From the NCBI GenBank assembly GCA_046756565.1, contig JBHHWO010000004.1:1-63984 (forward strand): DNA of 63,984 nt. Direction: 5' to 3'. The notes under the pieces are model-generated. The model saw nothing but the letters and a program-made list of their open reading frames with translations, did no database searches and was not told where the DNA came from. Positions 6,026-56,501 of this stretch are shown here, piece by piece (position 1 is the first letter of the stretch; the number at the start of each line of letters is the position of its first letter). The DNA comes from Thermoanaerobaculia bacterium. GTDB lineage: Bacteria > Acidobacteriota > Thermoanaerobaculia > Multivoradales > JAHEKO01. Made by a program: the position numbers and the translations under genes.

Positions 6026-6399
6026 TCGAAATCGGGCCGGGAACGATCGATCTCGATGCCGACCGACTCGGCGAAGCGCAGAGCCCCCGGCTTCTCCACT
6101 CGCACCAACACGCGCGGAGCTCCGAAATCCATCACCACGATGCGTGCGATCTCGGCACCCAAGGCCTCGACCAGCCGAAAGCTCGAGGATTCCACGAGTG
6201 CGATAATCGTCTTGGTGATCGAGCGATAGTTGAGCGTGTCGCCGATGTCGTCGGTGGCTCCGGCTGTTGCCAGATCCGAGAAGATGGTCAGGTTGATCAG
6301 GATGTCCTGCTTCTTCTCCCGCTCCCAGTCATTGACACCGATGATCCCTCGCAGGAGCAGGTCACGGACGAAGATCCTGTCGGTACTCGAATCGGCCAT
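6022..6399 (-). CDS. folB: Dihydroneopterin aldolase
   Basis: Sequence is MADSSTDRIFVRDLLLRGIIGVNDWEREKKQDILINL...DDIGDTLNYRSI...VRVEKPGALRFA. ATG at 6399. The upstream part of the 207-aa ORF is Arg-rich and overlaps the SDR gene. Confidence 0.9.
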   Translation of the reverse strand: MADSSTDRIFVRDLLLRGIIGVNDWEREKKQDILINLTIFSDLATAGATDDIGDTLNYRSITKTIIALVESSSFRLVEALGAEIARIVVMDFGAPRVLVRVEKPGALRFAESVGIEIDRSRPDFE

Positions 6400-6428
6400 C
6401 TGTTTCTGCCAACGCGGACAGTGCCGGA

Positions 6429-29487: not shown

Positions 29488-29490
29488 CGG

Positions 29491-32763: not shown

Positions 32764-32769
32764 GACCGG

Positions 32770-33987
32770 CTAGCTCGCTTCTCGGGCTTCGGCGATTTCG
32801 TCCGTGTCTTCTTCGTCGACACCCACCAGCTTGACGGCCGCGCCATTCTTTAGACCTCCCTGCCCTGCGACGATGACGTCGTCTCCGACTCCCAGCCCAC
32901 TCACAGCCTGCACCCAGAGCCCTTCCTCGAGTCCGAGCTCGACCTCGCGCTTCTCGGCCTTGCCCTCGTCGGTGAAAACGAAGACGTGCGCCGACTGGAG
33001 CTCACGAAGAACCGCCTCGCGCGGGACCAGCACCGCCGCTGTCCGGGTCTCGCGAACGATGTCGATCGTGACGAAGCTTCCCGAGCGTACGGTTTTCGGA
33101 GGCGCTACCGCTTCGATCGTCACCTTGATCGTCCCGGTCGCGGTGTCGACGACCGGGCTCACCTGCCGGACCAGGCCCTCGAACACGGTGTCGGGGCTGG
33201 CGTTCAAGGTAATCCGAACGTCACCGCCGCCCTGGAGTCCGATCACGTCGCGCTCGGGCAGAAAAATCCGGGCGACGAGCGGATCGACGTCGGTCAGCTG
33301 GAAGAGCTCATCGCCCATCCGCAGGTTCTGGCCGACCTGGATCATCCGTTCGCTGATCTGGCCCGAGAAGGGCGCCTTGATGGTCGTCTTCTGGAGTCGC
33401 CACGCCGCCTCGGCCTTCTCCTGCTGAGCGATCTCGAAGTCCATCTTGAACTTGTCGAACTCCTCGCGGCTGATCAGCTCCTTGGCGATCAGATCCTGGC
33501 CCCTTTCGAACGCCAGGCGAGCATTGGTCTCCTTGAGATCCGTCTTGCGGAGGTTGATCTCCTCGTCGTCGCGAACCAGGGTCGCCAGATGCTGTCCCTC
33601 ACGAACGAAAGCGCCCTCGTCCACGAGCAGGCGGGCCACGCGTCCCTCGACCTCGGCCAGAAGCCGGACTTCGTTCTCGGCGACCAGATTGGCGGTGGTG
33701 GTGATGTAAGCCGAAATCTGGCCCGCTTCGATCGCGGCGATCTCCACCGGAACCGGGGCTTTGCCTTCGTCTGCGCCTTCACCCTCGCCGTCGGAGCCTT
33801 CGGCGTTGTCCCCGCTGTCGCCCGAATCCGCCTGCTCCTCAGGCGCCGCGTCGGCGCCATTGGCCTCGCTCGCGCTCATGTTCATGAGCGCTGCCCCACC
33901 GACCACCAGCAGCGCGACCAGACCCGAGATCCAGAAGATGCGACTGCGCTTCTTTCGTTTCCGACCCGCGGACGTTTCCAGGCTCAT
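32770..33987 (-). CDS. RND periplasmic adaptor (membrane fusion protein, HlyD/AcrA family)
   Basis: It has an N-terminal anchor (IFWISGLVALLVVGGAALM), a lipoyl/hairpin pattern (G.V..L.VDEG..V..GQ.LA.L) and a beta-barrel segment (V.V...G.A..R.VELG). It is the first gene of the MFP-RND-RND operon. Confidence 0.9.
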   Translation of the reverse strand: MSLETSAGRKRKKRSRIFWISGLVALLVVGGAALMNMSASEANGADAAPEEQADSGDSGDNAEGSDGEGEGADEGKAPVPVEIAAIEAGQISAYITTTANLVAENEVRLLAEVEGRVARLLVDEGAFVREGQHLATLVRDDEEINLRKTDLKETNARLAFERGQDLIAKELISREEFDKFKMDFEIAQQEKAEAAWRLQKTTIKAPFSGQISERMIQVGQNLRMGDELFQLTDVDPLVARIFLPERDVIGLQGGGDVRITLNASPDTVFEGLVRQVSPVVDTATGTIKVTIEAVAPPKTVRSGSFVTIDIVRETRTAAVLVPREAVLRELQSAHVFVFTDEGKAEKREVELGLEEGLWVQAVSGLGVGDDVIVAGQGGLKNGAAVKLVGVDEEDTDEIAEAREAS

Positions 33988-34170
33988 TGGTTGTCTCCCT
34001 TGAGTCCACCTCGGGACAGCCGCGGTGGTGTACAGCTAGCAATACGCAAAGAAACGCAGGAGTGTTTCAGGGTTGGCGACAGCCCGAGGGGTCCAAAGCC
34101 GCGTGTTAAGATTGCCTGCAATCCGCACCGCGCCCATCGCTCGCGGAGGTCGTACCCGGGGGCGAAGCTC

Positions 34171-37149: not shown

Positions 37150-37337
37150 GCGCCGATTTTTAGCCAGGATTCTCCGTTTTTTGGTGCTCTCATGAGCATT
37201 CCCGGCGAGTCTTGGACCGAATCGACGGACACAATACCGGGAGCGCACCAGCCTTTCCCCCGGGTATTATGCAGAAAACCATTTGCATATTTGAATTTAC
37301 GCCCGAGGGGTAGTGCGACAGTGGCATATTCCCTTGT

Positions 37338-37354
37338 CCGGTATGCCGTTTGCC
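37338..37354 (+). promoter_or_regulatory. Weak candidate sigma-54 -24/-12 element upstream of the REC-PAS-GGDEF-EAL gene
   Basis: ccGGtatgccgtTTGCc has exact GG-N10-GC spacing, but the -24 box is poor (CGGTAT versus TGGCAC). An overlapping gTGGCATattcccTTGT (37321..37337) has spacing one nt too long. It lies in an AT-richer 268-bp intergenic region. Confidence 0.2.
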
Positions 37355-37417
37355 TTGATTCTCTGACGATCACCGCGGCTTTGCGCCGATGCAGGCGCCA
37401 AATCCCGGGAGACGACT

Positions 37418-39622
37418 GTGCTCAGCGACTTTCGAACGGCAAACAGGTCTCGTGACTCCCGGGCGCGGGAGACGCCCCGCGAGCGACGTCCGGCCCCCAC
37501 GCTCGCACGGACGATCCTCATCGTCGAAGACGATCTGGAGCTGACCCGGCTCGCGCGCCGCCATCTCGAAAGCCACGAGTTCCAGGTGTTCGTGGCTGGC
37601 GACGCCGCTTCGGCGATGGAGGCCTACATTACCGATCCTCCCGACCTGATTCTGCTCGACGTGGCGTTGCCGGATCGCTCCGGCTTCGATGTCTGCCGAA
37701 CTGTTCGGGAGCTCCCGGGCGGGCATTCTGTCCCGATCGTGATCATGACCGGGCTGGACGATCCGGACACCATCAAGCAGGCCTACACGAGTGGAGCCTC
37801 CGATTTCGCGGTCAAGCCCCTGAACTGGACGGTCCTGAGCAACCGGCTCTCCCTCCTGATCGAGGCCGACCGGGCTTGCCGGAAACTCGCAGCCAGCCAG
37901 ATCAAGCTCGAGAAGACCGAGCGCATCGCCCGCCTCGGCACCTGGGAGTACGACCTGGCGACCGAGCAGGTCTCGGCCTCGCGGGAGACTGCGAGAATCC
38001 TCGGAATACCAGAAACCGAGTGTTCGTCGCGAGACGCGCTGCTGAGCTCGATCCACCCTCTGGATCGGGACCGGGCGATCGAGTCGCTCCGGGAGATGGT
38101 CGACGATCTGGCCGAAGCCGAGCTCGAGCATCGCGTGCTGTGGAGCGATGGCAGCGTGCGCTCCGTCAAGCACCGCTCCCAGGTTCGGCGGGATTCGGCC
38201 GGCCACGCGGTGAGCGTTCACGGCGTGCTGCGGGATGTGACCGACATTCGCAGGGCCGAAGAGAAGATCCGGCACTTGGCCAACTACGACCGCCTGACCG
38301 GATTACCCAATCGCCACATGTTCCTCGAGCTCTTGCAGGGCACGATGGCTCGGTGTGAGCGCAGCGAAGCGATCGTCGCGATCGCCTACGTCGATCTCGA
38401 TCGATTCAAGAAGATAAACGACACGCTGGGGCCCGAGATCGGAGACGAATTGCTCACCGCGGTCGCCGATCGCCTCCGGATCTCATTGCGCAGAGGCGAC
38501 TATCTGGTTCGCGAACGAGGACCCCAGGTCGCCCGTTGGGGAGGAGACAAATTCCTCGTCCTGCTGAGCGACCTCGACGAAGTAGGCGGCGCAGCCAAGG
38601 CTGTTCGACGCCTCTTGCGTCAGCTCGAGATTCCCTTCGCGGTCGCCGATCGCGAATTCTTCCTGACCGCAAGCGCCGGTATCTCGGTATATCCCACGGA
38701 TGGCGCTACCGCATACGAACTCCTGCAGCACGCGGAGTCGGCGATGTACCACGCAAAAGACCTGGGGCGGAACCGCTTCCAGTTCTACAGCGAGTGGATG
38801 AACGCCGCGTCCGCGCGCGAGATGGACGTGGAGAACGAACTCCACAAGGCGATCGAGCAGAACGAGCTCTACCTGACCTACCAACCAGTCCTCGACAGCC
38901 ACTCCCAGAACGTGATCGGTGGCGAGGCTTTGGTCCGGTGGGTGCATCCCGAGCTGGGTACCGTCTCGCCCGACGAGTTCGTACCGATCGCCGAGGCCGC
39001 CGGGCTGATCGTACGCATCGGCGAATGGGTGCTGCGTACCGCGTGCCGGCAGTTCCAGATCTGGTTCGAGGCAGGGCTGCCCAGGATTCGCCTGGCGGTC
39101 AACCTCTCGAGCCTGCAGCTGCACGAGGAGGACTTCGTGGGCAGCGTGGCGCGTATCCTCGCCGAGACCGGCTTCGACCCGTCGCTTCTGGACGTCGAGC
39201 TGACCGAACGAGGCGTCGCCCTCGACGACCGGCGCGCCGTCCGGAGCCTCGAAGGCCTCAGAGAACTCGGAATCCGAATCGCAGTGGACGACTTCGGCAC
39301 CGGTAATTCGGCGCTCTCGTATCTCAAGATCTTCCCCCTCGACGTCCTCAAGATCGATCGGTCATTCGTTCAGGGAATCGAGCGGGAGTCGAGCGACTCG
39401 GCCATTATCTCGGCGGTAATCGCGATGGCGCACCGATTGGGCCTCGAGGTGGTTGCCGAGGGAGTCGAGACCGACTCGCAGCTCGAGTTCCTACGAGAGC
39501 AGGACTGCAATCGCGTACAGGGCTTCTTGTTCGCCAAACCGCTGCCGGCGGAGGACTTCAGGGAGGTATTCGATAAGATTGGGCCCGGCCTAGGCGGCCA
39601 GTCTCGACCGGAGCCGAGTTGA
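37418..39622 (+). CDS. Response-regulator receiver / PAS / degenerate GGDEF (GGDKF) / EAL protein, a likely c-di-GMP phosphodiesterase
   Basis: REC: ILIVEDD...[20 protein letters not shown]-like segment follows. GGDEF fold with [15 protein letters not shown] domain with [36 protein letters not shown] and EGVET..Q. Confidence 0.9.
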
Positions 39623-42600
39623 TGCGCCCTCATCCAGCCAGCGTTACCAAACACCGGCTGATGGCACTAAGCGGAGCGGGGCTCGGGCTGCTCTGCGCAA
39701 CGCTGCTGCTTGTCGGCGGAGCGAGCCCGGCCGCGGGCCAACAGCGCAAGATCCCCTTCGACCGGATCGGCGTCGAGGACGGGCTGCCCCATTCGGCGGT
39801 CAACGCCATAGTTCAGGACGACACCGGCTTCATCTGGTTCGGTACCCAGGACGGGCTCGCCAAGTACGACGGCAATCGCTTTCAAGTATTCCGCTCGAAC
39901 GAAGAAGACCCCGGATCGCTGTCGAACAATTGGGTGTGGTGCCTGCTCAAGGACTCCAGCGGTCGGCTCTGGATCGGAACCAACGAGGGCGGTCTCAACC
40001 TCTGGCAACCCGCCACGCGATCGTTCCGGCGTTACATCAACGCCGAGGTGAACCGTTCGTCGATCTCCAACAATCGAGTCCGGTCCTTGATGGAGGACCG
40101 CGACGGACGGATCTGGGTCGGCACCGAATCGGGTCTCAACGTTTTCGATCCCGTCTCCCAGACCTTCAAGCGCTATCTCCACGATCCCTCGAAACCCGAA
40201 AGTCTCGGGCATAACCAGGTACGGGCCATCTTCCAGGACAAAGACGGCTCGATCTGGGTCGGTACCAACGGCGGAGGTCTGGATCGGCTGAACCCGGCTA
40301 CGGGCACTTTCGCCCACCTCCGGCACGATCCGAACGACTCCTCCTCGCTCAGCCAGGATCGGGTCAGGACCATCTTCGAAGACCGCTCCGGTAACTTCTG
40401 GATCGGCACGTACGAAGGCGGACTCAACCGTCTCGACCGTTCGACGGGAGCTTTCGAGCGCTTTCAGCACAACCAGCTCGATCCCACCAGCCTGAGTGAC
40501 GACCGCGTTCGGGCGGTGTTCCAGGACGCCAGCGGCGTGCTCTGGGTGGGTACCGACGGGGGGCTCAACGAATGGCTCCCGGAGCGCGGCGAGTTCGTGA
40601 GTCACGAAAGAAACCTGGCTGATCCTGGCTCGCTCAGTGACAGCCAGGTGATGTCGATCTATCAGGATCGAGGCGGCGTGCTCTGGATCGGAACTCAAGG
40701 CGGCATCAACAAATGGAATGCCATCACCGGCTCGTTCTCGGGCTTTCGACAGGATCCGGACAAGCCCGAGACCAGCCTCGCCAGCAATACCGTGATCTCG
40801 TTCTCCGAAGACCCCTCGGGCCGGCTCTGGGTGGGCACCTACGAGGGGCTTGATCTTCTCGACCGGAAGACCGGCCGGGTGCGGCATTTCAGGAAGAACG
40901 ACCGCGACCCGAACAGCCTTCGCGACGACCGGGTGATGTCACTGTTCACCGACAGATCCGGCACGCTCTGGGCCGGAACCTACGAGGGCGGGTTGCATCG
41001 CTTCAATGCCGACGAAGGGGGGTTCAAGAACTTCCGCAACGATCCAGACGACCCGACCAGCCTCAGCCGCGACGCCGTCACCGCCATCTATGAGGACAGC
41101 CTGGGCGTGCTCTGGGTGGGAACCTTCGGCGGCGGGCTGAATCGCTTCAACCAGGACCGCACCTCCTTCATCCGCTACCTGCACGATCCCAATAACGCAG
41201 CCAGCCTGGGAGCCGATCAGGTGCTCTGTCTGTTGGAAGGCTCCGACGGAATCCTCTGGATCGGAACCGACAGCGGCGGTCTCAACGGGTTCGACCGCAG
41301 CACGGGGTCGTTTACCCGGTACCGAAACGATCCCTCGAACCCCGACAGTCTCAGCAACAATACGGTGTTCTCGCTCCGGGAGACCGAAGACGGAACCCTC
41401 TGGATCGGAACCCAGGGTGGCGGGCTGAACAAGTGGACCCAGGCCGACAGGGAGGCCAACCTGGCCCGGTTCGTCAACTACGATTCCCGTCATGGTCTGC
41501 CCAACGAGGTCATCTACGGGATCCTCGACGACGAGGACGGCAACCTGTGGATGAGCACGAACGAAGGCCTGGTCGGCTTCGACCCGAACACCGAAGGTGT
41601 CCGGACCTACGACACGACCCACGGCCTTCTCTCCAAAGATTTCAACTTCGGCTCTTACCGGAAGCTGTCGACCGGAGAGATGCTATTCGGAGGTAACGAG
41701 GGTTTCAACATCTTCCATCCCTCCTCGATCCAAGCGAATGCCCACATCCCCGAGGTCGTGATGACTTCCTTCCGCAAGTTCAACCGGGAGGTCGAAACCG
41801 ACACACCCCTGACCGACCTCGAAGAGATCGAGCTCTCGCACAAGGACTACGTCGTCTCGTTCGAGTTTTCCGCTCTCGACTACTCGGCCCCTCAGAAGAA
41901 CCGGTACTCCTATCGGCTGGACGGCTTCGAGACCAACTGGAACGAAGTCGGCAACCGGAATCGAGCGACCTACACCAACCTCGATCCGGGCACGTACACG
42001 CTGCGTGTCAAGGCGGCCAACAACGACGGCCTTTGGAACGAGGCCGGACTGACGATACCGATTCGGGTGATTCCACCTCCCTGGAAGACCTGGTGGGCCT
42101 ACCTTTCGTATGCCGCCGCTGTCGTGTTCGGCGTGATGGCGATCCTCGGAAACCTGTCCGCAAAACGGCGTCGCGAGACCGAGCAGCGGCGCTATCTCGA
42201 GCGTCAGGTCGCGGAGCGTACCCGCGAGCTGGCCCTCAGAAACCGTGACCTTCAGGAGGCCATCGACAAGGTCGAGCTTGCCAGCGTCACGGACACCTTG
42301 ACCGGTCTGCGCAACCGTCGCTTCCTGGTCAACAATATCGATTCCGATCTAGCGCTGGTCGACCGCTACTACGAAGACCTCAAGCGCCGCCCGGAGGCCG
42401 TCGACGCCGACCAGGAGCCCGACACCCTGTTCTTGATCTTCGATCTAGACGGCTTCAAGGAGATCAATGACACCTATGGCCACGCCGCCGGCGATCGGGT
42501 GCTGCTCCAGGTCACCGACCTGCTCGAAGCCACGTGCCGGGAATCCGACACCATTATCCGATGGGGCGGAGACGAGTTTCTGATCATCGCTCGGCGTACG

Positions 42601-42978
42601 CGGCGGCAGTCGGCGGAAGATCTCGCGGAGAGGCTCAGGGCCAGTGTCGCTGCTCACGAGTTCGAGCTCGGACTCGGCAAGAGCGCCAACCTGTCCTGCT
42701 CCATCGGATTTGCCTTCTACCCGTTCTTACGCAAGTTCCCGAGAGCGCTCTCGTGGGAGCAGGTCAACGCCATCGCGGACCGCGCGCTCTACATCGCCAA
42801 GAAGAGTAATCGCAACGCCTGGGTGGGTATCTTCGAGGATGACAAGGCCAGCGACGTTCACCCGTCGGCGTTGGTCCAGAAAATCAACCACGAGCTCGAC
42901 GAGCTGGTCGAGCAGGGCGTGGTCAGCTTGAGTACCTCGATCACCAGCGAGGAGCAGCTGGTGTGGGCCTGGGCCTGA
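39622..42978 (+). CDS. Periplasmic two-component-regulator-propeller + Y_Y_Y sensor diguanylate cyclase
   Basis: Signal/TM at the N-terminus. More than 12 repeats of the W(I/V)GT..GGLN.(F/W) propeller motif. Y_Y_Y domain (YSYRLDGFETNWNEVG...YTNLDPGTYTLRVKAANNDG). Then a TM helix, a coiled coil and a GGDEF domain with the I-site (RESDTIIRWGGDEFLII). The ATG at 39622 overlaps the upstream TGA (TGATG). Confidence 0.9.
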   Translation: MRPHPASVTKHRLMALSGAGLGLLCATLLLVGGASPAAGQQRKIPFDRIGVEDGLPHSAVNAIVQDDTGFIWFGTQDGLAKYDGNRFQVFRSNEEDPGSLSNNWVWCLLKDSSGRLWIGTNEGGLNLWQPATRSFRRYINAEVNRSSISNNRVRSLMEDRDGRIWVGTESGLNVFDPVSQTFKRYLHDPSKPESLGHNQVRAIFQDKDGSIWVGTNGGGLDRLNPATGTFAHLRHDPNDSSSLSQDRVRTIFEDRSGNFWIGTYEGGLNRLDRSTGAFERFQHNQLDPTSLSDDRVRAVFQDASGVLWVGTDGGLNEWLPERGEFVSHERNLADPGSLSDSQVMSIYQDRGGVLWIGTQGGINKWNAITGSFSGFRQDPDKPETSLASNTVISFSEDPSGRLWVGTYEGLDLLDRKTGRVRHFRKNDRDPNSLRDDRVMSLFTDRSGTLWAGTYEGGLHRFNADEGGFKNFRNDPDDPTSLSRDAVTAIYEDSLGVLWVGTFGGGLNRFNQDRTSFIRYLHDPNNAASLGADQVLCLLEGSDGILWIGTDSGGLNGFDRSTGSFTRYRNDPSNPDSLSNNTVFSLRETEDGTLWIGTQGGGLNKWTQADREANLARFVNYDSRHGLPNEVIYGILDDEDGNLWMSTNEGLVGFDPNTEGVRTYDTTHGLLSKDFNFGSYRKLSTGEMLFGGNEGFNIFHPSSIQANAHIPEVVMTSFRKFNREVETDTPLTDLEEIELSHKDYVVSFEFSALDYSAPQKNRYSYRLDGFETNWNEVGNRNRATYTNLDPGTYTLRVKAANNDGLWNEAGLTIPIRVIPPPWKTWWAYLSYAAAVVFGVMAILGNLSAKRRRETEQRRYLERQVAERTRELALRNRDLQEAIDKVELASVTDTLTGLRNRRFLVNNIDSDLALVDRYYEDLKRRPEAVDADQEPDTLFLIFDLDGFKEINDTYGHAAGDRVLLQVTDLLEATCRESDTIIRWGGDEFLIIARRTRRQSAEDLAERLRASVAAHEFELGLGKSANLSCSIGFAFYPFLRKFPRALSWEQVNAIADRALYIAKKSNRNAWVGIFEDDKASDVHPSALVQKINHELDELVEQGVVSLSTSITSEEQLVWAWA

Positions 42979-42992
42979 TCGCCGATCCGGTC

Positions 42993-43943
42993 CTAGCGCC
43001 CCGACTCCCCGGTCGCCAACAGCTCGACGGTTTCCGCGAGACGATCGAGTCCCTCCGGTACGCTCAGCCGATTCACCGGAGTGGCGTGTGCGAGGGCGAT
43101 CGAGAAATCCAGGTGTCGAGCCCGGAGATCCGGAGCGAACAGCCGTGAGGCGACGGTGTGCTCCAAGACACCGAGAACCGCATCCCGGATCGACAGCCGG
43201 CTCCGGACGGCGCTCGAATCCAGCCCCACTCGCTTCAAGACCGCCAGCTCCCCGACTCCGAGTAGGTCGGATCCGATCCACTGCTCCGGATCGGTGAGCT
43301 TGAGTTGGGGAAACCGGGGATACGCCATCGCGGTTCCGTCTTCGATCACCCCGATCGGAACCACATCATCTGCAATCCGGCGGAAGAGCGATCCGACATT
43401 GCCCGCCGCGGCCAGGGTCGACTTGCCGGACCCGGAGTCACCCAGAATCAGGGTCGCCCGCCCGCCTATCTCGACGGCGCTCGCGTGCAAGCTGAAGACG
43501 CCGCGCTCGGCCAGGGCCAACGCGAGCCCTGGACCTAGCGCCGCGAAGCGGGCCAGCGTCCCCGAGACGTCGGCGTACACGCGCAGCCTGCAGGCTCCAG
43601 GCATGGTCTCGAGCTCGAGATGCACCGAGTCCTTCACCACGATCCGGTACAGTCCCCGGGTCCACGAGCAGACCACGTCGACGTCCCGTCCGCCGACCCA
43701 GCCGCGCCCGGTGTAGATCGGCCGTAGATCCTCGGCCCGAACATCGCGGGCGCCGGGTGGCGGATAGCCGGCTGTGCTCTCCGGCGCCGCGTACGGCTTC
43801 AGCTCGGGAATCGCTCGGTTGGTCACCAGCGTCCGGCCGGCCACCCGGTACCTCCGTGGCCGCTCGTCCGAGCGGACAGCGCCGAACTCGACGACCAGCT
43901 CCGGAGCGGTGGGCTTGCTCATTTCAAGCAAGCCCCCAGCCAT
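42993..43943 (-). CDS. HPr kinase/phosphorylase C-terminal-domain-like P-loop protein (lasso-cluster-type kinase candidate)
   Basis: The P-loop LILGDSGSGKSTLAAA is followed by RIADDVVPIG, as in HprK-like kinases. The N-terminal half of about 150 aa has no recognisable motif. ATG 43943 overlaps the cyclase stop by 20 nt. The alternative ATG 43922 lies 1 nt after that stop. Confidence 0.75.
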   Translation of the reverse strand: MAGGLLEMSKPTAPELVVEFGAVRSDERPRRYRVAGRTLVTNRAIPELKPYAAPESTAGYPPPGARDVRAEDLRPIYTGRGWVGGRDVDVVCSWTRGLYRIVVKDSVHLELETMPGACRLRVYADVSGTLARFAALGPGLALALAERGVFSLHASAVEIGGRATLILGDSGSGKSTLAAAGNVGSLFRRIADDVVPIGVIEDGTAMAYPRFPQLKLTDPEQWIGSDLLGVGELAVLKRVGLDSSAVRSRLSIRDAVLGVLEHTVASRLFAPDLRARHLDFSIALAHATPVNRLSVPEGLDRLAETVELLATGESGR

Positions 43944-45702
43944 GCCGGCGCCGCCAGAGCTCCAAGCTCAGGCACCGCCACAGAAGCACCTTCTCGATCG
44001 GCTTCGAGTCGACTCCGACCGAGCGAATCCGCTCTTTCTCCAAGAAACGGGGCCAGATCGCTCCCTCGCCGTGAAGAAGATCCTGGACCAGCCGCGCCCG
44101 GCGATCGAAGACGCCGAGGTCGAAGAGCGGATCCAGGTGCGTGGGCTCCTGGCGCAGCCGAATCGTTTCGGGAATCAAACCCTGAGCGGCGTTGCGCCCG
44201 ACGAGCTTGCTCCTTCCCGGCCGAAACACCTGATGCGCCGGTAGCGCCAGCATGAATTCGACGAAGTCGAGGTTCCAGAACGGGCTCAGGACCTCGACCC
44301 CCTGGCGGCCGGCGAAATCGTGTTCGAGGTTCTGCCCCCGAGCCTGGAGGTCGAGGTATCCGACCACATCGCGGTGACCGGGAGCGCGCACAGGCGCCTC
44401 GGCGTACTCGCCCTTTAGGAAGGCCCTGGCTTCCCGGGTCAGCCACTGGGTATGCGGACCGGCCGGCCCCCGGCCCGACGGACGCACAACGCGCGCGATC
44501 GCACCGGACGCAGCCCTCAACCCGTCCCTCCGGGCATGGCGCGCGAGACAGGCGCCGGCGGTTCGAAAGCGTCCTTCCAGAAGAAGATCTCTCAGATACA
44601 GGTTCGTCTGCCTCTGCAGAATATCCGCAGGGCCGCCGTTGAAGAGGACGCGGCGCCCGCCCGAGACGGCCTCGCGGTAGAGGGCCGTCTTCAGCGAACG
44701 GTAGGGATTCTCCTCCGGCGTGCCGGCCAGCTCGCAGTACTCGTCGGGTTCGGAGAGGGTCCAATGTCGGTCTCCGGCAGTCTGGATTACCTCGAAATCG
44801 GCCGACTCGAGAGTGAGCTCGATCCATTCGCGCTCGTCACACTGCGCCAGTTGATCGAACACCCAGGAGCACGCGCCGACGCGGCCCCCGGCGGGCGCGG
44901 CCAGATCCGCCGACAAGCAAGCGAGCGTGGTCGAATCGAGCCCACCGCTCAGCATGACGCCGACCTCGTCCAGGTTTCCGGCCATCTCCGAAATCGCACT
45001 GCGGATCAGATCGGCAAAGGCCTCGGCGCAGGCCGCATCTGTCCTCCCACGCTCGGGCCGGATCGCCTCGGGCCTCCAGAACGGAACCGCTCGCGTCGAG
45101 CTCTCGTCGAACTCGATCGCCGTGCCACGAGGAACTTCCCGGATTCCCTCGAAGAACGTACAGCTCCTCCGCGGCCCGAGGACCGAGAAGAAGCGCGCGA
45201 GCTCGCCTGGGACAAGGCTCCACGACGTCTCGGGCCGGTTGAGCAGAGTTTCGATCCGGTCGGAGACGATGACCAGCCCGTCCCGCTCGATGTAGAAGAG
45301 AGTCCCCGGCCCGAGGGGATCGCACGCGAGTCGAAGACTGCGACTCTCCGCGTCGAAGACCAGGGCCGCGTACCGGGATCGAAGCCGCCTCCAGAGTTCG
45401 CTACCCCATCGCCGATGACCCTCCGCAACGGAAACCGAGAGGTCGCCGGATCCGCCCAGCGCGTTCGAGAGCTCCCTGGCATGCCGTGGGCCGAGTCCGA
45501 CGATTGCCTGCCCGCGAGCCGAGGCCGAGAGGACTTCGCCTTCGCCGGCGCTGTGCAACAAGCGAAACCCCCGAAGCTCGGTATCCGACCGGGCTCCGAC
45601 GCCGCCCCGATCCGAATGGCCGAGGGCCACGGCCATGCGCTCGCACTCCGAGACCGGAACCGGCAAGCCCCGGCGGTCGAAGATCGCCGCGAAGGAGCTC
45701 AC
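43924..45702 (-). CDS. Asparagine synthetase B-like protein, a candidate lasso peptide isopeptide-forming cyclase
   Basis: The PP-loop is GVMLSGGLDSTTLACL. The N-terminal Ntn-like domain begins (V)SSFAAIFDRRG and lacks the Cys2 nucleophile, as in lasso cyclases. GTG 45702 was chosen. The track start at 45777 would overlap the precursor core. Confidence 0.8.
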   Translation of the reverse strand: MSSFAAIFDRRGLPVPVSECERMAVALGHSDRGGVGARSDTELRGFRLLHSAGEGEVLSASARGQAIVGLGPRHARELSNALGGSGDLSVSVAEGHRRWGSELWRRLRSRYAALVFDAESRSLRLACDPLGPGTLFYIERDGLVIVSDRIETLLNRPETSWSLVPGELARFFSVLGPRRSCTFFEGIREVPRGTAIEFDESSTRAVPFWRPEAIRPERGRTDAACAEAFADLIRSAISEMAGNLDEVGVMLSGGLDSTTLACLSADLAAPAGGRVGACSWVFDQLAQCDEREWIELTLESADFEVIQTAGDRHWTLSEPDEYCELAGTPEENPYRSLKTALYREAVSGGRRVLFNGGPADILQRQTNLYLRDLLLEGRFRTAGACLARHARRDGLRAASGAIARVVRPSGRGPAGPHTQWLTREARAFLKGEYAEAPVRAPGHRDVVGYLDLQARGQNLEHDFAGRQGVEVLSPFWNLDFVEFMLALPAHQVFRPGRSKLVGRNAAQGLIPETIRLRQEPTHLDPLFDLGVFDRRARLVQDLLHGEGAIWPRFLEKERIRSVGVDSKPIEKVLLWRCLSLELWRRRHGWGLA

Positions 45703-45736
45703 CGGATGGAGGATACCGGGCGCGCCGCAACGCGGC

Positions 45737-45943
45737 CTAGCCAAGCCGCTGCTCGATGAAGGCGTTGCCGCTGTCACCTAGGCCCGGAGAGCCGCCCAGG
45801 GTGAGCGTCCGGAGATCGCCGAAGCACTCGAGGCGGGGAGACACGTAGGCCCTCTTCGGGCAAGCTGTCGTATGACCCGCCCGGAGATTGCCGGTCCCGG
45901 CGTGCGCTCCTCCTCGCCTTTCGCTCTTGCCTGCCGCCTTCAT
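45737..45943 (-). CDS. Candidate lasso peptide precursor (leader ...AYVSPRLECFGDLRTLTL / core GGSPGLGDSGNAFIEQRLG)
   Basis: The small ORF sits 34 nt upstream of the cyclase gene on the same strand. The leader matches YxxPxLx3Gx5Tx exactly: Y35, P38, L40, G44 and T50 in track-ORF numbering. Thr is at -2, Gly at core position 1 and Asp at core position 8. The core is encoded at 45740..45796. The start is uncertain (ATG 45943 or GTG 45949). Confidence 0.6.
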   Translation of the reverse strand: MKAAGKSERRGGAHAGTGNLRAGHTTACPKRAYVSPRLECFGDLRTLTLGGSPGLGDSGNAFIEQRLG

Positions 45944-45967
45944 CGCCACCCCGGTTTCGCGCCGGCC

Positions 45968-48900
45968 CTATTCCGCCCCCTCGGGCACGATCGACAAAGT
46001 CGGATCGCCGAGAAGCGTCCAACCCAGAATCACGTCCAGACGACCCGGATCGGTCTCGGCCAGATCCTGCTTCGCTTCCAGGATCGCTTCGCCCAGACTC
46101 CTGCCCGGAATCGCCAGTCTCTCGAACACCCTGCGGCCCAGGCGTCGCTCCGAGAGCGCCTCGGTCAAGGTGGCCGCTCCCAGAACCGCCGCCGCACCGG
46201 TGTCGGGCTCGAGCAACAGCCGGTTGCCCAGCGTCTCGAAGCTCGGCAGCACATGGTACGTGTTCCAGCAGCCCCACTGCGTCACGATCGTCGGGTCGCC
46301 GCTGTTGGTCAGCTCGGCCACATCGTCCGACTTGAACAGGCCGTCGAAGCTCCACACGGTGAGCCCCGAGTGGCCGAAGTAGCTGGTCAGCGCCGGTCCG
46401 GCACTGATTCCGTCGATCAGCGCTTGGCGGGCTTCGGCCACGGGCTGATCGTCGAGGTAGGCCCGGTCGATCTGCCAGCCCGGGCCCAGGAGCGCAGCCA
46501 TGTCCTCACTGTCGCTCGCGAACGAGTAGCCGGAGCCGAGGTCGAGTCCGTCCGCGGCCAGTACCGCGCTCAGCCCACCGTCTGCGTTCGAATACGCCAG
46601 CGTCTTCGCGATCACAGTAGCCAGCTCGTCGGTCGTACGAACCGGCCAGCGACCCACGGCCATGTCCGGTATCAGGTCGCCGTCGACGTCTCCGTACAAC
46701 GGGTCCACCGGCGCGTAGGTGACGATCACGTCCGTCTGCGCGTACAGACTCGGAACGAAGCTCACCGAGCCGAGACCCAGATAGTCGAAGTAGTCGTAAG
46801 TGTCTCCACCCACCAGCAGCAGAGAGCGAACGCCGTGGTTGTAGGCCGCCGTCGCGTACCGCCGGATCGATTCCGGATCGACCACGCCGTGGCTGAACCT
46901 CGAGTAGAGGTCCGCCACGTCGACGACCTTCACCGCGAGCCCCTGGGACTCGCGCAAGGCCACCCAGGGCGCCAGGCTGTCGATGAAGTCCGCGTGTGAG
47001 ACCACCAGCACGTCCAGGTCTCGGAGACCGAGATCGGAGTTCACGGCAGCTTCCTCGATCGTCGGGCTCAGGATCCCGGCGCCCGCCGCCGTCCAGTATG
47101 CGGCAGCCTCGCCGAGACCGCCGGCGGAGCCGAACAGCGCCTCATAGGCCCCCGGCGATCCGAGCACCTGCACGCCAAGACGCGAGGTGCCAGCTTCGCC
47201 CCGCGCGTAGGCCACCACGTCGGAGGAGCCAAAACCGCCCACTGCGAAGTTACTGCCCTCGGAGGCGAAATCGAGCGCGTCTCCGATCGCTACGAAGGCT
47301 CGCGGATAGGACACGGTCAGGTGGTCGTAGTTCACCAGGTCGTACTGTGCCCCGGTGTCGTGCGGCAACTCGATCTCGAGCGCGTTGCCGGTGGCCAGAA
47401 GAGCACCGTCCGAGACCTCGAACGCGAGCTCGGGCACCGAAACGCCGTCGAAGAGCTCGTCCGCGACCTGAGAGCCGTTGACGTCGAGCACCACGTGGTG
47501 GTCGGGAGCCGAGGGGAAGTCGGTGCCGCCGAAAAGCGCCACATCCAGAGCCACCGGCGCCGCCCCCGGCACCCAGCCCTCGAGATCGAACGGAATCGAG
47601 GCCTCGACCGGACCCGATATCGCCAGCAGCCGTAGGTCGTACCATGGATCGTCGGTCGGGGACGCGAAATGGTACTGGACCTGGTTCTCGACCAGTGCCG
47701 ACTCCAGATAGAAGCTCTCGGCGGCGCCGCCACCGTTGAACGGCAGCTCGGAGACGCGAGCCGCCGCGCGGCGGTTCACGCTCAAGCGGTAGACGTTGGT
47801 CTTCGTGTAGAGCGAGTCCACCGGCTCTCCGACGAACTCGATATACGAGCCCGGGCCGAAGACCGGTTCCGGCGAAACGTACATCGGCACCGAAGCGCCG
47901 GCGGCCGAAAGCGCCAGCCAGTCCCTGCGCGCGCCGGCGAAGTCGAGGCCGGCGGCCGCCAGGTCGTCGTAGCTGACCCGGTAGATGCCCTCGCGATCGG
48001 CCCCCAGACTCGCCGTCGGGTAGACCGAGCGCCGCTGTGGGCGGCAAGCGAGGCAACGGTCACTGCCGCCACCAACGCCGATCGCGCTCGCGATGAAACC
48101 GCTGCCGCGCCGCGAGTCCTGCGCCGCGGCGTCGCGTCTCAGAGCGTTGCGGGTCGCGGCACGCGCGCGGGACTTTTCGGCCTTCTGCTGACGGATCTTG
48201 CCCCAGGCTACCGGCTTGACCCGGTCGACCTCGGAGCCGCGCGCTGCGTCCAGGTAGAAAGGACCGTGGTGGCGCAGCTGGCCATGGATGTCGACGTCTT
48301 CGAGCACGAAGACCTTGCCGGCCGAGCCCGAAGCCTCGAACTCGTAGGTCTGCGGCTCGAGCGAGTCGACTACATGAGACGCGATCAGTTCGCTGTTGAG
48401 CTTCTCGAGGCCCTCGTCCGTCACCGCGTACAGATTGAAGCCCAGGTTGCCCACCTCGGTGGAGGTCATCCACCGGAACGAGCCGCCGGAACGGGCCTCG
48501 AAATACGCCAGGGTCACCGGCGTCGTGGTAATGCCGCCGTTCCAGAAGCCGAAATCGTTGCCGGTGGAGTTGGCAGCCACCAGGGTCACCGGCTGAACAC
48601 CGTTCTCGGGGAAGCTGCCTCCCTGCTGGGTCGTCTGGATAAAGTCCTCGACCGCCGTGCCCGCCGTGTCCGCCGTCACGATGTAGTCGCCGGGGGGCAG
48701 ATCGGTGAAGGTGTAGTCACCGGCGGCGTCGCTGGTGGTGACGTCGATCTGGGGCTCAGCCGGATCCAGAATGCCGTCGCCGTTCAAATCACGGTAGAGA
48801 CGCATCGTCGCGCTCTGGACCAACGGCTCGCCGTTGAGCGTCGCGCTGCGATCTTCGTCCTCGAAGACGGTCCCCGAGATCGAGAGTCCCGCACCCAACG

Positions 48901-51900
48901 GACCGGCGTAGCCGAAGTCCTGATCGAAGTTGCCGGAGCCGGCCACCACGGTCAGGTCTCCGAGGTTGTCGCAGGTACCGCACGGCATGCCGAACTCGTT
49001 CGGATCGTGCGTCTGTACGAAGGCCTCGAGCACCGCGCCGGCGACGAAGTTCTCGGGCGCCACTCGCACAACATAGTCCTCGGGCGGCAGCGACTTGAAC
49101 TCGTACTCGCCGTTGACGTCGGTGAACTCGGTGCGGACGCGGTTATCGATGCCCGGCTCGATCGTGCCGTTGCCGTTCAGATCGACCCACAGCTCGACGT
49201 AGACGCCCTCGATCCCGGGCTCGGTTAGGTCTTGAATGCCGTCGCGATTGATGTCGTGCCAGACGAGGTTGGAGATCGTCCCGGTGCCGCCTGAGGGGGC
49301 GTACCCGAAGTCGATCGTGTCGATGTTCGCGCCACCCAGAGGAATCGTCACCGAGCCCTGCATGTCACAGGTGGAGCAGATCCCACCCTCGTCGGGATCC
49401 CCGGTCTGCTGGAGGAGACCGGTCACGCCGTTGATGTCCGAGACCACGACCGTGTAGGTGGCGTCGTCGGGCACGCCGGCGAACAGGTAGTTTCCGCTCA
49501 TGTCGGTAGTGGTGGTCGCGATAATGTCGCCGGAGGCGTCCACCAGATTCACGGTCACGCCTTCGATGCCCGCCTCGCCAGCGTCTTGAACGCCGTCGCC
49601 GTCTTCGTCGATCCAGATGAAGTCTCCGATCGACCCGACAGTGCCGCCGTCGAAGCCGAAGTCCAACGTCGTGATGATGTCTCCGGCGATGGTCGTCACG
49701 ACATAGGTGTCGTTCGGAGCAGTCATATTGGTCGGCTGGGTGTTGTAGCCGAGGGCCGTGACGTCGGCGTCGTCGAAGCTGACCGTGTACTCGCCCGGTG
49801 TCAGGTTCTTCGCCAGCCACACGCCGTCGGGACCGGTCGTAACGGTGCAGGAGGGCATGCACGACGGTCCGACCAGGATGACGTCGATGCCCTCGATCCC
49901 GACTTCGCCCGGATCCTGCAGCCCGTCGCCATCGGCGTCGTACCAGACCCGATCACCCAGAACCGAAGTGCCAGCGGTCGGAACGTAGCCGAAGTCGGCG
50001 TCGGTGAACCGCTCGCCCTCGGAGAGCCGGATCACAGAGGATGGATCGGTCGTGCCGGCGGTCTCGGTCAGATTGGTCAGGATCGAGTTGGTGTCGGTTA
50101 CGTCGACCACATAGTTGCCGGCCGGCAGATCCGGCAACACGTACTTGCCGTTGGCGTCCGAGATGGTTGACGCGACCACGCCGACGTCGTCGGCGGTGCC
50201 GAGCATGCCGTCGGGACCGACGTCGATGAGATCCAGCGTCACCCGCGTTAGACCGGGCTCGGAGGCGCTGGCGACACCGTCACCGTTGACGTCCAGCCAG
50301 ACCGTGTCGCCGATCGAGGCGGTGCCCGGATCCCGGATGTAGCCGAAGTCGATGCCGCTCACGTTCATCGCGGCGACCGTGATCGGGATCATCTCGAGGC
50401 CGCTGGTCAGCGTGTAGCCCTCGAGAATGCCTGCCCTATCGGTGACCCAGACCTCGAAGTTGCCCGCCGGCACGTCCGAGAAGGTATAGGTGCCATCGGA
50501 GGCGCTGGTGGTCTCGGCGACGATCAGGTCGTCGTTGGTGCCGAAGATTGCATCCGGGCCCGGGTCGAAGAGAGTCACCGTCACGCCCTCGAACCCGGGC
50601 TCGCCGGAGTCCAGGACGCCGTCGCGGTCCGGATCGAAGAACACCGTTCCGGTCACCTCGGGCAGCGACACGTTCCGGTAGCCGAAGTCCTGCGCCAGAT
50701 CGCTCCTGTTGAGCGTCACCGTGGTACTGCCTTCGTCGTCACAGATCGTGCACTTCACGCCCGGCTCGCTCGGATCGCCGGTCTGGGTGAAGCCCATCAA
50801 AAGCATCCCGGTGTCGGTGACCCGAACCGTGTACGAGCCCACCGGCAGGTTGTCGAAAAGATAGCTGCCGTCGGCCGCCGTCGTGGCGGTGGTGATCACC
50901 ACGCCGGTCGCGGCGTCGACGAGATCGAGCGTGATGCCTTCGATGCCCGACTCGCCAGGATCCCGAACGCCGTTGTCGTTGGTGTCGTTCCAGACCAGAT
51001 CGCCGATATTGCCGGGGGCGTAGTAACCGAAGTTGACCCCGCTGATCGGAGCGCCAGCCATGGTCAGCGGCAGCTGGCCCGCCCTCGCCGGTACCGTCGT
51101 GCCGAACAGATCGGTCAACTTTGCGTCGGTGTCGTCGATCTGGATGATGTAGTCCCCGTCGGGCACCAGCGGAAAAGTGAACTTGCCGTCGGTGCCGCTC
51201 ACGGCAGTCGCGATCACCTCTTCGTCGCCGTTGTTGGGTGTTCCGTCGGGATCGGAGAGCAGGCTCGCCGTCACGCCCTCGATGGTCTGCTCTCCCGGCG
51301 CGAACTTACCGTCGCCGTTCTCGTCCAGCCAGACCGTGTCGGAGATAGGATGCAGCGGCGGCATCGCGCAGAAGTCGATACCGGCCAGAGCGCCCGCGTC
51401 GTCCAGGGTGACGGTCAGGCGCCGCACGCCGGTTTCCGCAATCGCTACGTTCTGAAAGCTGTTGCTGCCGAGGTCGGCGATCGCTACCGTGCCCAAGGAC
51501 ATCAGGGCGGCATCAAAGGTCTCGACGGTGTTGCCCGGCGAGTTGCCGTCCATGAAATCGATGCTCGCAACGTCGACGTCGTAGTTGAAATCGAAGGTGA
51601 GCGTGCCACCGTTGAGGTTGTCGTCGGGATCGCTAGCGTCCCCGTCTTCAGAGATGATCAGGATGTTGCCCTGCGGAACGCAGTTCTCGCCCGGCTGACC
51701 GAGCTCGCCGCCGGTGCCGACTCCCAGACCGGGAGGTGCGCAAGTCTCGTTGGGCGAGCCCAGATCGGTGTCGCCGCCGGTGGGCACCCTGCTGTCGAAG
51801 ATCATCGCCGGGCCGGTGCCAGGAGCCGCCGCGGTGAAGCTCACGGCGATGCCCCACTTCGCGAACTCGTCGTCGATGGTCTGGCCAGAGGCGAGCGCGA

Positions 51901-54900
51901 AGCCGCCGCTGTCGGTCTCGAAACCGATCCGCGGAAGGCAGGTGTTGGCATAACCGAAGTCGAGGTCGGTGATCGCCTCGCCGGCCATGAGGGTGAACGG
52001 AGCGCTGGTCTCGGTTCCGATCGACTGCGGTCCCTGGGTGGCGCCGTAGCCGTCCAGATCTCCGCCTCCCGCAAGCTCGGCCGCGTCGATCTGGACGTAA
52101 TACTCGCCGGGCGGCACGTCGGTGAACAGGTACTTGCCGTCCGCACCGGTAACCACGGGCGAGACCCCCGCCACCTCGGTGCCCGTGGCGGCGTCGAACA
52201 GCCGCACGGTGACGCCCGAAATCCCCAGCTCACCGGGATCCTGGATACCGTCGCCGTTCGAGTCGTTCCACACGTAGTCGCCCAGGGCACCCAGGGTCGG
52301 CGCCGGCGAGTAACCGAAATCGACGTCCAGGAAGACCTCGGTAGAGGTGATCACGATCGTGCTGATCGGGTTGCTCGAGCCGGGCGCGATCGAGAGCCCG
52401 GTCGGTATCGTTGTCTCGTCGACGAAGACCTCGTAGGTGCCCGGCTGCAAGTGGCTGAAGAGATACTCGCCTCTGGCGTTCGTCAGTGTCGTCGGACAGT
52501 TGACCGCGGGTGTGCAGACGCCGTCTCGAAGCTCGACCAGGACGTTGGCCAGACCCGGCTCGAACTGGTCGTAGTAGCCGTCCTCGTCCACGTCGAGCCA
52601 GACCAGATCCCCGATCGCGCCGCCGGGACTCACGAAGTCGGTGACTTGTCCCTGAACCGGGTTCGGATTCTCGAAGGTCCTGCCGATCGCGGTGTTGATC
52701 AAGAATGGGACGTCGAGCGGATCGTCGGCGACCACATCGAAGGTAGCGGTCATGACGTCGCCAGGCGCCAACGCAAAGCTGTCCCCGGGAAGCGTGATGA
52801 CCGGTGGCGCCCCGTCGAGAAGCTCGGGATGGTTGGGGGGATCGGGCAGTGCCACCCCATCGTTGTCCTTGGTTTCGACGACCTGGATACCGGCCTTGAC
52901 CCGCACGTTGTCGACCGAGAAGAACTCGGTGCCCTCGAGGGCTTGCGAAATGCGGAAACGGACCGCCGTGTTCGCCGAGATGAACGGTGTGATGTCGTAA
53001 CTGCGTGAGCCGTCGGGATCGTTGACGAATTCGCCGATCGCGGTGAACGTGCCCGCAACCCCGGTGCTCGAAACCTCGACTTGCATGCGATCCGCGTTGC
53101 CGAGGGCGTTGATCTCTTCGCTGGTGTCGTAGTCGAAGCTGAGAATCGCGAAAACGCTACCCGAGAGATCCACCTCGCGCTGAGCGCTGTTGTCGACAGC
53201 GCCGCTCAGGCGAAGCTCACCGGCGGTAACCAGTACGTCGCCGCCACCGGAGCCGCCACCACCGGCATCGGTCTCGGTCCAGTCGATGAGCCAGCCACAG
53301 GGAGTCGCTCCGCACGGCACGCCGGTGCCGCCGGTGTATCCGGAGGAGAAGTCGTCCAGGGCCTCGACGCTGTCGCCCGCGGCCCGCACGTCCACGACGT
53401 CAGCAAAGAAGAACTCGCCGGCGCCACCGTAGTTCGCAGCGACCCGGAACCGGACAGCTGTGTCGGGCGGCGAGGGGGGCGGCGCGATGCAGCCCGAGAT
53501 GTCGTAGCCGAGGCTGCCATCGGGGAACGAGTTGACATCCCCATCGATCCCGTCGAGGGTGCTGTCGGGCACCGGCCCGAAGGTTCCGCCGCTGCCGTCG
53601 GAGGCGCACTCGATCTCGATCACGTCGGTGGTATCGACCACGTCGCTGACCCGGAAGTCGAACAACAGGGCGGCGAATGGATCGGGACCGTCGATCACCC
53701 TCAGGTCGCCGACCGCGCGCGCGGCCGCGGAACCCACATCCTCCATGCGCAGCTCGATGTTGGCCGGTCCCTGAAAAACCTGAACGTCGCCGGCCGAGGG
53801 GTCCTGAGGCGGGCCTGCGGTGTCGGTCTCGAGCCAGTTCCCGCTCCAATCGTTGGGCCCCTCCTGGTTGGCGTAGCTCTGCAGCTCGAAGGCGTCTCGC
53901 ACGAAGAACTGCTCGGGGCCGGTCACCACCGTCGATCCGGCCACATAACTCACCTCGGCTGGTAGCAGGTCGCTGAGCTCGACACCGGTGACCGGACTTC
54001 CCGAGGTGTTCTCCACGGTCACCGTGTAGGTGATGGTCTGTCCCGGAATCACCGGCGACCCGGCCGCGCTCGAGGTCTTGGTCACCGTGATCTCGCCCGC
54101 CCGCAGCGGAGCCGCATCGGCGTCGACGAAGGTCTCGGTGTCCGAGCTCACCACGACGTTGTTGACGATCTCCTCGACGCCGACCGGCAGTGGATCGTTC
54201 ACCTGAGCGACGAAGGTGACCAGTATCTCGGCACCCGGCGCCAGCTCGTCCGGGGATGCGACCAGTGCGTAGCCCATCGGATGCCCCGCGTCCACGTCGA
54301 GCGGGAACGGCGTATCGAGCGGCAGGTCGTCGGGAATCGCCGCGCCGTCGACCTGGGTCGAATCCAGCACGTAGGTGGTGTTCGGGTCCAGGGTGTCGAC
54401 CAGGAAGATGTCGGTGATCGGCACGATCCCGGTGTTGACCACCCGAATCGTGTAGAGGATGGTCTCGCCCGGATCCAGCCCGCCGTTGTTGTTGGCGTCG
54501 TCGAGCAGAGCGCCCGACTTGAAGGCCGTCAGGCTCGAGAACGGCAGCACCGTTGTGCCCATGTCGAGCTGCTGCGGCTGGCCCGAGCTCGAGAACGCGG
54601 GATCCTGTCCCCAGGCCGCCGTCAGCCGCGTGCCGTCCACGGTGTAGACCCTCAGACCGGTCTGGTCACAGTCGCCCGACGTGCAGGGGTCTCCCGGGTT
54701 GGTGTCGGGCGGGGCCTGATCGAAGATCCGGATCGCCTCGAGCTGGACGACGCCGGAGAATAGCTGGTCGTACCGGTTGCCGAACGGGTCGATCAGGGAT
54801 CCGGTCGCCGGATCGGCGTCGAAGTCGACGTAGATGTCTGTAGTCCCGTCGATCGGCGTGACGAAGACCGGGCTCACGTTCTCGGTCAGATTGGTCGATC

Positions 54901-56263: not shown

Positions 56264-56501
56264 GGCAGATTCCCTATGCAAGGCGCAAGAAAAACATGAG
56301 CTTTTCCACCGTCTTCACGGCCTCCGAGTCCGACTGCTTTCCGGCTTGATGGCCCAGGCATTACAGGCTCTCAACGTCGCGGCGACCAACGTGCGCACCT
56401 CGGCGGCTTGGTACCCCAAAACTGCAGTTCAATTCTCACTTGTTTCCGGTTTTTTCGCTGTGGACTACGACCAGCCCAGAGTGGTCTTCTCCTACCGCAG
56501 A

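Follow-up and report, generated by a model that had tools for sequence, protein, structure and literature searches.

We analysed a 63,984-nt stretch of contig JBHHWO010000004.1 from a Thermoanaerobaculia bacterium. We call this whole stretch the window, and coordinates refer to it unless another locus is named. Three tightly packed genes on its minus strand look like a pathway for a lasso peptide, which is a type of peptide that ribosomes make and that is modified after its translation (RiPP): a precursor (A), a macrolactam cyclase (C) and a kinase (K). The initial annotation had picked out these three open reading frames (ORFs), and we found them where it had placed them. Directly upstream on the same strand is the gene for a giant secreted protein that ends in a Peptidase_C25 domain. 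What defines a lasso cluster, in genome mining too, is that a B protein (or the separate proteins B1 and B2) and C occur together, where B1 is the RiPP recognition element (RRE) and B2 is the leader peptidase. The initial annotation had claimed that no gene of either kind is present here, and our searches of the locus and of the window bear this out.

Precursor, cyclase and kinase

Related loci are labelled with L-numbers (L001 and so on). For the main census we took one genome per species and used the kinase alignment as the query, which gave 65 loci from Chloroflexota, Acidobacteriota and Proteobacteria. Genes in these 65 species-level loci were called with local hidden Markov models (HMMs) for the genes of the lasso family. 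The window's locus belongs to a clade of about nine members, which we call the window clade. Its members came from the close relatives of the cyclase, with three further members found via the kinase and two from metagenomes (L077 and L078). The metagenome scan, for which the query was the clade cyclase alignment, also returned two family relatives (L079 and L137); its other 76 loci are distant asparagine synthetases and were left out.

The precursor ORF (45737-45949, minus strand) encodes 70 aa from a GTG and 68 aa from the ATG at 45943 (45737..45943). Only the C-terminal half is conserved, and it consists of YVSPRLECFGDLRTLTL and then the core GGSPGLGDSGNAFIEQRLG. The leader has 49 aa (45797-45943) and the core 19 aa (45740-45796). 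The leader motif reads YVSPRL...TL, with Y(-17)xxP(-14)xL(-12) and T(-2), and is followed by a core with Gly1, Ser3, Asp8 and Ser9. The 68-aa ORF had been proposed as a lasso precursor, and its sequence does satisfy the rules for one: Thr(-2), YxxPxL, a small residue at position 1 and Asp within positions 7-9. The NCBIfam model lasso_leader_L3 scored the window precursor at 15.6 bits, under the cut-off of 19; six of the seven relatives tested passed this cut-off with 20.6-27.7 bits.

We located precursors in the other loci with a regular expression that required the YxxPxL...Thr(-2) motif. A precursor was found beside the cyclase in 55 of the 73 sequences in hand, in the three clade loci derived from the kinase search and in three of the four metagenome loci, and the motif search gave only three off-target matches. 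The window precursor is not a chance ORF, as it recurs beside the cyclase in related loci, and the small ORF is thus conserved next to the cyclase homologues as its reading as a precursor had implied. Every precursor found has YxxPxL...Thr(-2), and this complete retention is partly circular because the regular expression demanded the motif. Core statistics were taken from 50 tabulated cores. All 50 have Gly or Ala at position 1, Ser or Thr at position 3 and Asp or Glu at position 8 or 9; in 43 of them Ser or Thr follows this acidic residue. The core tail is variable, and total core length runs from 13 to 40 residues. A C-terminal Ser is found in one core out of 50, and the last residue of the window core is Gly. 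In one locus, L011, two tandem precursor genes (6383-6799 of that locus, plus strand) are flanked by the C25 gene on one side and by a cyclase gene in inverted orientation on the other; the two cores differ slightly (AGSIFPGESG... and AGSLIPGESG...).

The lasso-type macrolactam cyclase (592 aa, 43924..45702, minus strand) begins with a GTG at 45702, after a gap of 34 nt from the precursor stop (45737-45739). Its N-terminus is MSSF, hence without the Cys2 glutaminase nucleophile, and its PP-loop reads MLSGGLDST. The gap, the SGGLDS motif and the missing Cys2 had all been pointed out in the initial annotation. Pfam matched Asn_synthase to the protein at 1.2e-22. The top NCBIfam model was the lasso cyclase NF033535 with 145 bits, yet this is under the curated cut-off. 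The asparagine synthetase model AsnB TIGR01536 gave 90.6 bits against a cut-off of 267, and the XrtA/PEP-CTERM amidotransferase TIGR03108 gave 52.5 bits against a cut-off of 817. The window protein matches the HMM for the family's cyclases over model positions 1-597 of 597. There are a handful of close cyclase relatives, at 43-45% identity, and in every one of them the order is giant C25 protein, small ORF, cyclase and kinase. We saw the same order in the three clade members derived from the kinase and in the two from metagenomes. In a neighbour-joining tree of the cyclases, which has no support values, the window protein nests among cyclases that adjoin B1/B2 and precursors and not with AsnB or exopolysaccharide (EPS) amidotransferases, in keeping with its first reading as a lasso cyclase.

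The kinase (309 aa, 42993..43922, minus strand) has its ATG at 43922, one base past the cyclase TGA (43924-43926), and carries the P-loop GDSGSGKST. It had been described as HprK-like from its letters alone, abutting the cyclase stop, and its predicted structure agrees with that. An AlphaFold model built on 102 homologues had a pLDDT (predicted local distance difference test) of 94.5, and the top Foldseek matches of the model were the HprK/P catalytic domain (E = 6e-7, probability 1.00) and PEPCK. We take the fold from AlphaFold and Foldseek because a sequence search of PDB chains with the kinase profile gave P-loop-level matches only. The N-terminal domain of the model is all-beta and does not have the winged-helix fold of an RRE. 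The 102 kinase sequences show little or no variation at His146, Lys167, Ser168, Asp185 and Asp186, and G161 is invariant in the 19 closest sequences.

The kinase also has weak profile matches to the HprK-related kinase A and ScmC cassettes (TIGR04352 and TIGR04249, with 25 and 17 bits, far under the cut-offs), with which it shares the P-loop kinase fold, and many of its relatives carry the corresponding Pfam annotation PF27840. The genomic partners differ, being a lasso cyclase and a precursor here and radical-SAM enzymes in those cassettes. Three loci (L046, L065 and L068), covered for 10 kb to either side of a full-length kinase, contain no cyclase, no B1 or B2, no C25 and no precursor that could be recognised, and from these it seems that the kinase family may also serve another system.

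The giant C25 protein

The giant protein (up to 3437 aa, 45968..56281, minus strand) has a Sec signal peptide by prediction and, from Pfam, DUF11, ten SdrD_B domains, CarboxypepD_reg repeats and a C-terminal Peptidase_C25 domain. The stop of its gene precedes the precursor start by 18-24 nt. The initial annotation had described a self-contained three-gene unit, boxed in by a convergent GGDEF gene on one side and by this gene, as an adhesin, on the other. The GGDEF boundary stands (see below). The giant gene is not a boundary, as its product ends in a C25 domain and partners the module, and the idea of a self-contained unit does not hold given the spacing on the same strand and the presence of a C25 domain in 40 of the 65 loci.

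The C25 catalytic domain (45983..47218, minus strand) matched PF01364 with 215 bits against a cut-off of 23, over model positions 2-373 of 374. The His and Cys of the catalytic dyad (in the motifs GHS and QWGCWN) are invariant in 32 family members. The domain is related to PorU and the gingipains, and PorU came top in both NCBIfam and PDB: the model for PorU, the sortase of the type IX secretion system (NF033707), scored 113.8 bits, and the PDB matches were PorU 6za2 (E = 8.7e-10) and Lys-gingipain (7e-6). We rejected the giant protein as a true PorU, since its score is far below the equivalog cut-off of 420. Propeptide_C25 is absent among the Pfam matches of the giant protein. The domain is nearer to PorU than to the gingipains, and, in a difference from PorU, it always forms the extreme C-terminus of signal-peptide proteins, here repeat proteins of 600-3400 residues in Acidobacteriota, Chloroflexota and Proteobacteria. 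We know of no use of type IX secretion in these three phyla. Before the C25 domain there is a conserved segment, PVTLAYFEA...W.T.TEVGN.GF.LY (47300-47500, minus strand, and also in L021 and L041), to which no Pfam family was assigned and which recurs in short and long C25 proteins.

In the census, a cyclase was present in 49 of the 65 loci. In 27 loci the C25 domain and the cyclase share a strand, with the end of the domain 8-1381 bp upstream of the cyclase, and in 26 of these 27 the gap is at most 574 bp and is either empty or bears a precursor. Apart from L017, the only loci with an ABC exporter were those of the canonical, distantly related outgroup (L006/L007). Clustering of neighbouring ORFs showed a nucleotidyltransferase in about 12 loci and no further component common to most loci.

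That the giant gene and the lasso module may be co-transcribed is suggested only by the 18-24 nt between them. A promoter scan found no sigma-70-like promoter between the giant gene and the module. There were only two terminator-like matches, which overlap and lie inside the cyclase gene, and this is no more than shuffled sequence gives. A regulatory scan upstream of the giant gene found nothing, and there were no Rfam matches in the window.

The giant C25 protein is a conserved partner of the lasso module. Since the operon-like adjacency is found in three phyla and exporters are nearly absent, we think that the lasso peptide probably works together with the giant protein in some manner. With respect to the PorU-like domain it could have the role of substrate, covalent cargo or inhibitor; alternatively, the link may be one of co-regulation only.

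B1 and B2 in the window and in related loci

Pfam scans of 37 ORFs covering the plausible genes of the window found no PqqD (PF05402) and no Transglut_core3 (PF13471). We then used HMMs for B1 and B2 built from family relatives (37 and 29 sequences) on six-frame stop-to-stop translations of the window and of nine related loci with the --max setting, and nothing was better than E = 0.8. After the kinase there is no room for B genes or for a remnant of them, because the stop of the convergent gene is only 14 bases from the kinase stop (42979-42992). This gene encodes a Reg_prop/Y_Y_Y-GGDEF sensor (39619..42978, plus strand), which forms the boundary of the module and lies outside it. The same convergent neighbour is present in L001 by its Pfam domains and in L073 and L074 by size, position and flanking genes. 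We also considered an RRE fused to the kinase or to the cyclase and rejected it: both proteins can be aligned over their whole length with their counterparts from loci that have B, and the N-terminal domain of the kinase is all-beta.

The sensor is the last of three cyclic di-GMP (c-di-GMP) genes that converge on the module (32986-42978, plus strand), the others being a sigma-54 activator with GGDEF/GAF and a response regulator with PAS-GGDEF-EAL. This trio or a near equivalent is beside the module in L001, L073 and L074. The synteny of these genes in the window clade may reflect relatedness alone.

Across the census, C25, cyclase, kinase, B1 and B2 occur together in 19 of the 65 loci, and in these loci B2 carries the canonical Cys and His. 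Seven loci have B1 only, two have B2 only, and 20 have neither B gene in the DNA that was fetched for the locus. Among the B-less loci, those that are fully sampled, with at least 5 kb on each side of the kinase, are L008, L009, L011, L016, L028, L034, L053 and L055.

All of the window clade members are B-less, and in all of them the ORFs are intact, PP-loop and P-loop are kept and the precursors are nearly identical. Their identity in the cyclase and kinase is only 40-47%, and despite this the clade has been conserved under constraint over the long term. The initial annotation had raised the prospect that the A-C-K triad recurs without B in related genomes, and it does, in about nine independent assemblies. 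Because so many independent assemblies share it, the absence of B is not an assembly artefact.

In the neighbour-joining tree the window clade (Thermoanaerobaculia-like) is monophyletic, and C25, B1 and B2 are all present in its sister group, formed by L030 and L070 from Acidobacteriota. The B-less state is thus derived. Judged from these comparisons of sequence, the full form of the family is C25-A-C-K-B1-B2, with B lost several times, and the ancestral unit would have had B1 and B2 directly after the kinase, both of which are gone from the loci of the window clade.

The genes of this family are often dispersed. In L017, B1 lies upstream at a distance of about 7 kb and B2 downstream at about 3 kb, on the opposite strand, and in L041, L044 and L054 the B genes are on the other strand. 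Four loci (L035, L049, L064 and L066) have the kinase, B1 and B2 and no cyclase in the DNA fetched; L064 is a 4.6-kb contig. L035 and L049, where these genes are at positions around 9.5-11.3 kb of the locus, have a precursor too. Because these loci have the kinase and both B genes and no cyclase, their genomes must supply the cyclase in trans. They mirror the B-less state of the window, and it seems that the pathway is often split across the genome. Three loci (L021, L038 and L039) keep B1, twice in L021, with no B2 within 10 kb. In L039 there is an 854-aa protein after B1, and a similar protein is found in seven loci. Some loci are broken, by frameshifts in L047, L051, L060, L061 and L072 and by a split cyclase in L037.

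Proposed pathway and its alternatives

The known system closest in its details is the bsf cluster of Bradymonas sediminis FA350, which consists of BsfA, K, B1, B2, C, D and N (Duan et al. 2023, PMC10368454). Its kinase, BsfK, places a phosphate on Ser3 of a core with Gly1 and Asp8, acting on the linear precursor; it requires the leader, is inactive when given the core alone, and B1 stimulates it strongly (PMC10368454). The YxxPxL motif serves for B1 binding and the penultimate leader residue for processing by B1/B2 (PMC10368454). The window shares with bsf the YxxPxL at -17 to -12, the Gly1/Asp8 ring and Ser3. The catalytic residues of BsfK are H148, G163, K169, S170, D186 and D187 (PMC10368454), and, compared by residue positions, H148, K169, S170, D186 and D187 correspond to H146, K167, S168, D185 and D186 in the window kinase. 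The two also differ in several ways. The bsf cluster has B1, B2, an ABC exporter and a nucleotidyltransferase, whereas the window locus has none of these; it has Ile(-2) where the window has Thr(-2); and it is flanked by an FG-GAP repeat protein, with no C25 protein reported beside it.

Our preferred reading, which we hold with about even confidence, is that the locus is a functional lasso-type RiPP module making a BsfK-type lasso peptide phosphorylated at Ser3, with B1 and B2 encoded elsewhere in the genome. The HprK-fold kinase would act first, on the linear 68-aa precursor, most likely at the Ser/Thr3 of the core; we infer this because of the analogy with BsfK and the conserved catalytic residues. 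The leader would then be cut after Thr(-2)-Leu(-1), presumably in trans by a B1/B2 pair that recognises the retained YxxPxL...Thr(-2). Lastly, the cyclase, whose enzyme family is clear from the matches above, would adenylate Asp8 and join it to the amine of Gly1, giving an 8-residue ring and an 11-residue tail. The predicted product would be a threaded lariat of the lasso type, with a calculated mass of 1812.875 Da, or 1892.842 Da when monophosphorylated.

Two other kinds of known cluster bear comparison. In clusters of the paeninodin/ThcoK/SyanK type, lasso folding comes after the linear precursor has been modified by an HPr-kinase homologue, whose target is a C-terminal Ser (PMC8498205). The outgroup L006/L007 has this layout (NTP-transferase, A, C, K, PqqD, Transglut_core3 and ABC), with a precursor that ends in Ser and a cyclase that is a distant relative of the window cyclase. 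Paeninodin-type clusters carry B1, B2 and D, and the window locus is without them. We rejected a C-terminal Ser as the phosphorylation site here, since the window core ends in Gly and only 1 of 50 cores ends in Ser. With canonical class II lasso clusters the locus shares the precursor rules, the ATP-dependent Asn-synthetase-like cyclase and, by prediction, the 8-residue Gly1-Asp8 ring; in contrast to them it lacks B or B1/B2, lacks an exporter and is linked to a giant C25 protein.

We favour B1 and B2 acting in trans because the pathway genes of relatives are dispersed, the B recognition pattern is kept and neither the cyclase nor the kinase has an added domain. All of the B-less loci with a cyclase and a found precursor keep Y(-17), P(-14), L(-12) and T(-2). 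The evidence on trans-acting against replaced B proteins is circumstantial and leans to trans. Several points weigh against this reading. For the clade members we found no B1 or B2 in the 64-kb window or within 10 kb at the clade loci. A search of 5.8 billion proteins with the B2 profile gave 456 matches, and the best 120 include none on the large contigs that have B-less loci. Loci without B are common, namely eight fully sampled ones at species level besides the window clade, and the state is stable over deep divergence, which would also fit a B-independent route. The conservation of the leader could equally be explained by a kinase or cyclase that needs the leader, and the retention of the motif owes something to the regular expression used to find it. 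The cyclase tree, as mentioned, comes without support values.

The alternative that survives best is a B-free pathway, in which a non-B protease (a housekeeping peptidase or the C25 domain) removes the leader and the kinase and cyclase recognise the leader alone. We consider this unlikely. In its favour, B1/B2 are lacking in the window and at about nine loci of its clade, several lineages are B-less (among them L009, the L011/L028/L059 group, L016 and L034), and L021, L038 and L039 have B1 without B2. C25 is the only peptidase domain conserved beside the module, with its His/Cys dyad invariant. However, the C25 protein has a Sec signal and would hence be extracellular, while cyclisation is an intracellular step that requires ATP and a free Gly1 amine. 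In 19 loci C25 is found along with B1 and B2, so leader removal would not be what it did ancestrally, and L016 and L034 lack both C25 and B, so it cannot be a general substitute. Thr(-2) and YxxPxL are retained, and our literature search found no description of a lasso pathway without a B protein. C25 as the general leader peptidase is a candidate that we rejected for these reasons, as it is secreted, stands beside B2 elsewhere and is missing in some B-less loci. More doubtful again is the combination in which these genomes have no B-type enzyme at all and the peptide is a partner (substrate, cargo or inhibitor) of the PorU-like peptidase/transpeptidase. If that were true, this would be the first lasso pathway to mature without an RRE or a transglutaminase-fold leader peptidase, and a RiPP tied to the assembly or control of a cell-surface protein.

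We think it quite improbable that the locus is a decaying remnant that makes nothing after the loss of B1/B2. Related loci are visibly broken, namely the frameshifted and split ones listed above, but in the window clade the three genes are intact in about nine diverged members, with invariant catalytic motifs and a near-identical core, which is not expected without selection. A shade less probable still is a product that is not a lasso, where the cyclase-like enzyme couples Asp8 to another amine, on the giant protein or on a small molecule, as a decoration or tag. The tight link of the module to the giant protein, the near-absence of an ABC exporter and the absence of B genes would suit this idea. 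The precursors, however, are indistinguishable from those of B-containing sister loci that are expected to make lassos, Gly/Ala1 is invariant as an N-terminal macrolactam requires, and the cyclase is collinear with the cyclases of B-containing loci. We give hardly any credence to the enzyme being an asparagine synthetase or an EPS/exosortase-type amidotransferase instead of a RiPP cyclase, for while all of its NCBIfam matches are below curated cut-offs and the locus is beside cell-surface and c-di-GMP genes, the lasso cyclase model is the best (145 against 91 and 52 bits), Cys2 is absent, a lasso-type precursor is adjacent and the relatives adjoin B1/B2.

A B-less clade implies either that lasso genes are routinely split across the genome or that the leader is removed by other means, and mining rules that require B and C together would presumably miss a long-conserved A-C-K clade such as this one. 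The pairing with C25 and the scarcity of exporters suggest a role tied to a surface protein or protease and not the logic of an antibiotic plus its exporter, and the pairing of peptide and peptidase is concrete and testable. Our search of 8.3 million papers and preprints found no mention of a clade-wide absence of B1/B2 or of lasso-C25/PorU coupling. A lasso cluster with a BsfK-like kinase is known; the stable clade-wide absence of B and the coupling to a giant PorU-like C25 protein appear to be unreported.

Some other genes in the window are worth recording. Lasso isopeptidases belong to the prolyl-oligopeptidase (S9) superfamily, and there is an S9 gene at 7291-9276 (plus strand), about 35 kb from the module and with no sign of linkage to it. 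The region 26392-33987 (minus strand) has a gene for a membrane-fusion protein and, adjacent to each other, two genes for RND pumps of the AcrB type (1031 and 1090 aa); the membrane-fusion gene is syntenic in L001 and L073. Three genes encode proteins with Cds6_C NTF2-like C-termini (10259-11467, plus strand; 57765-58967 and 58977-60221, minus strand), with PilZ, a YkuD L,D-transpeptidase and TPR repeats as the N-terminal parts.

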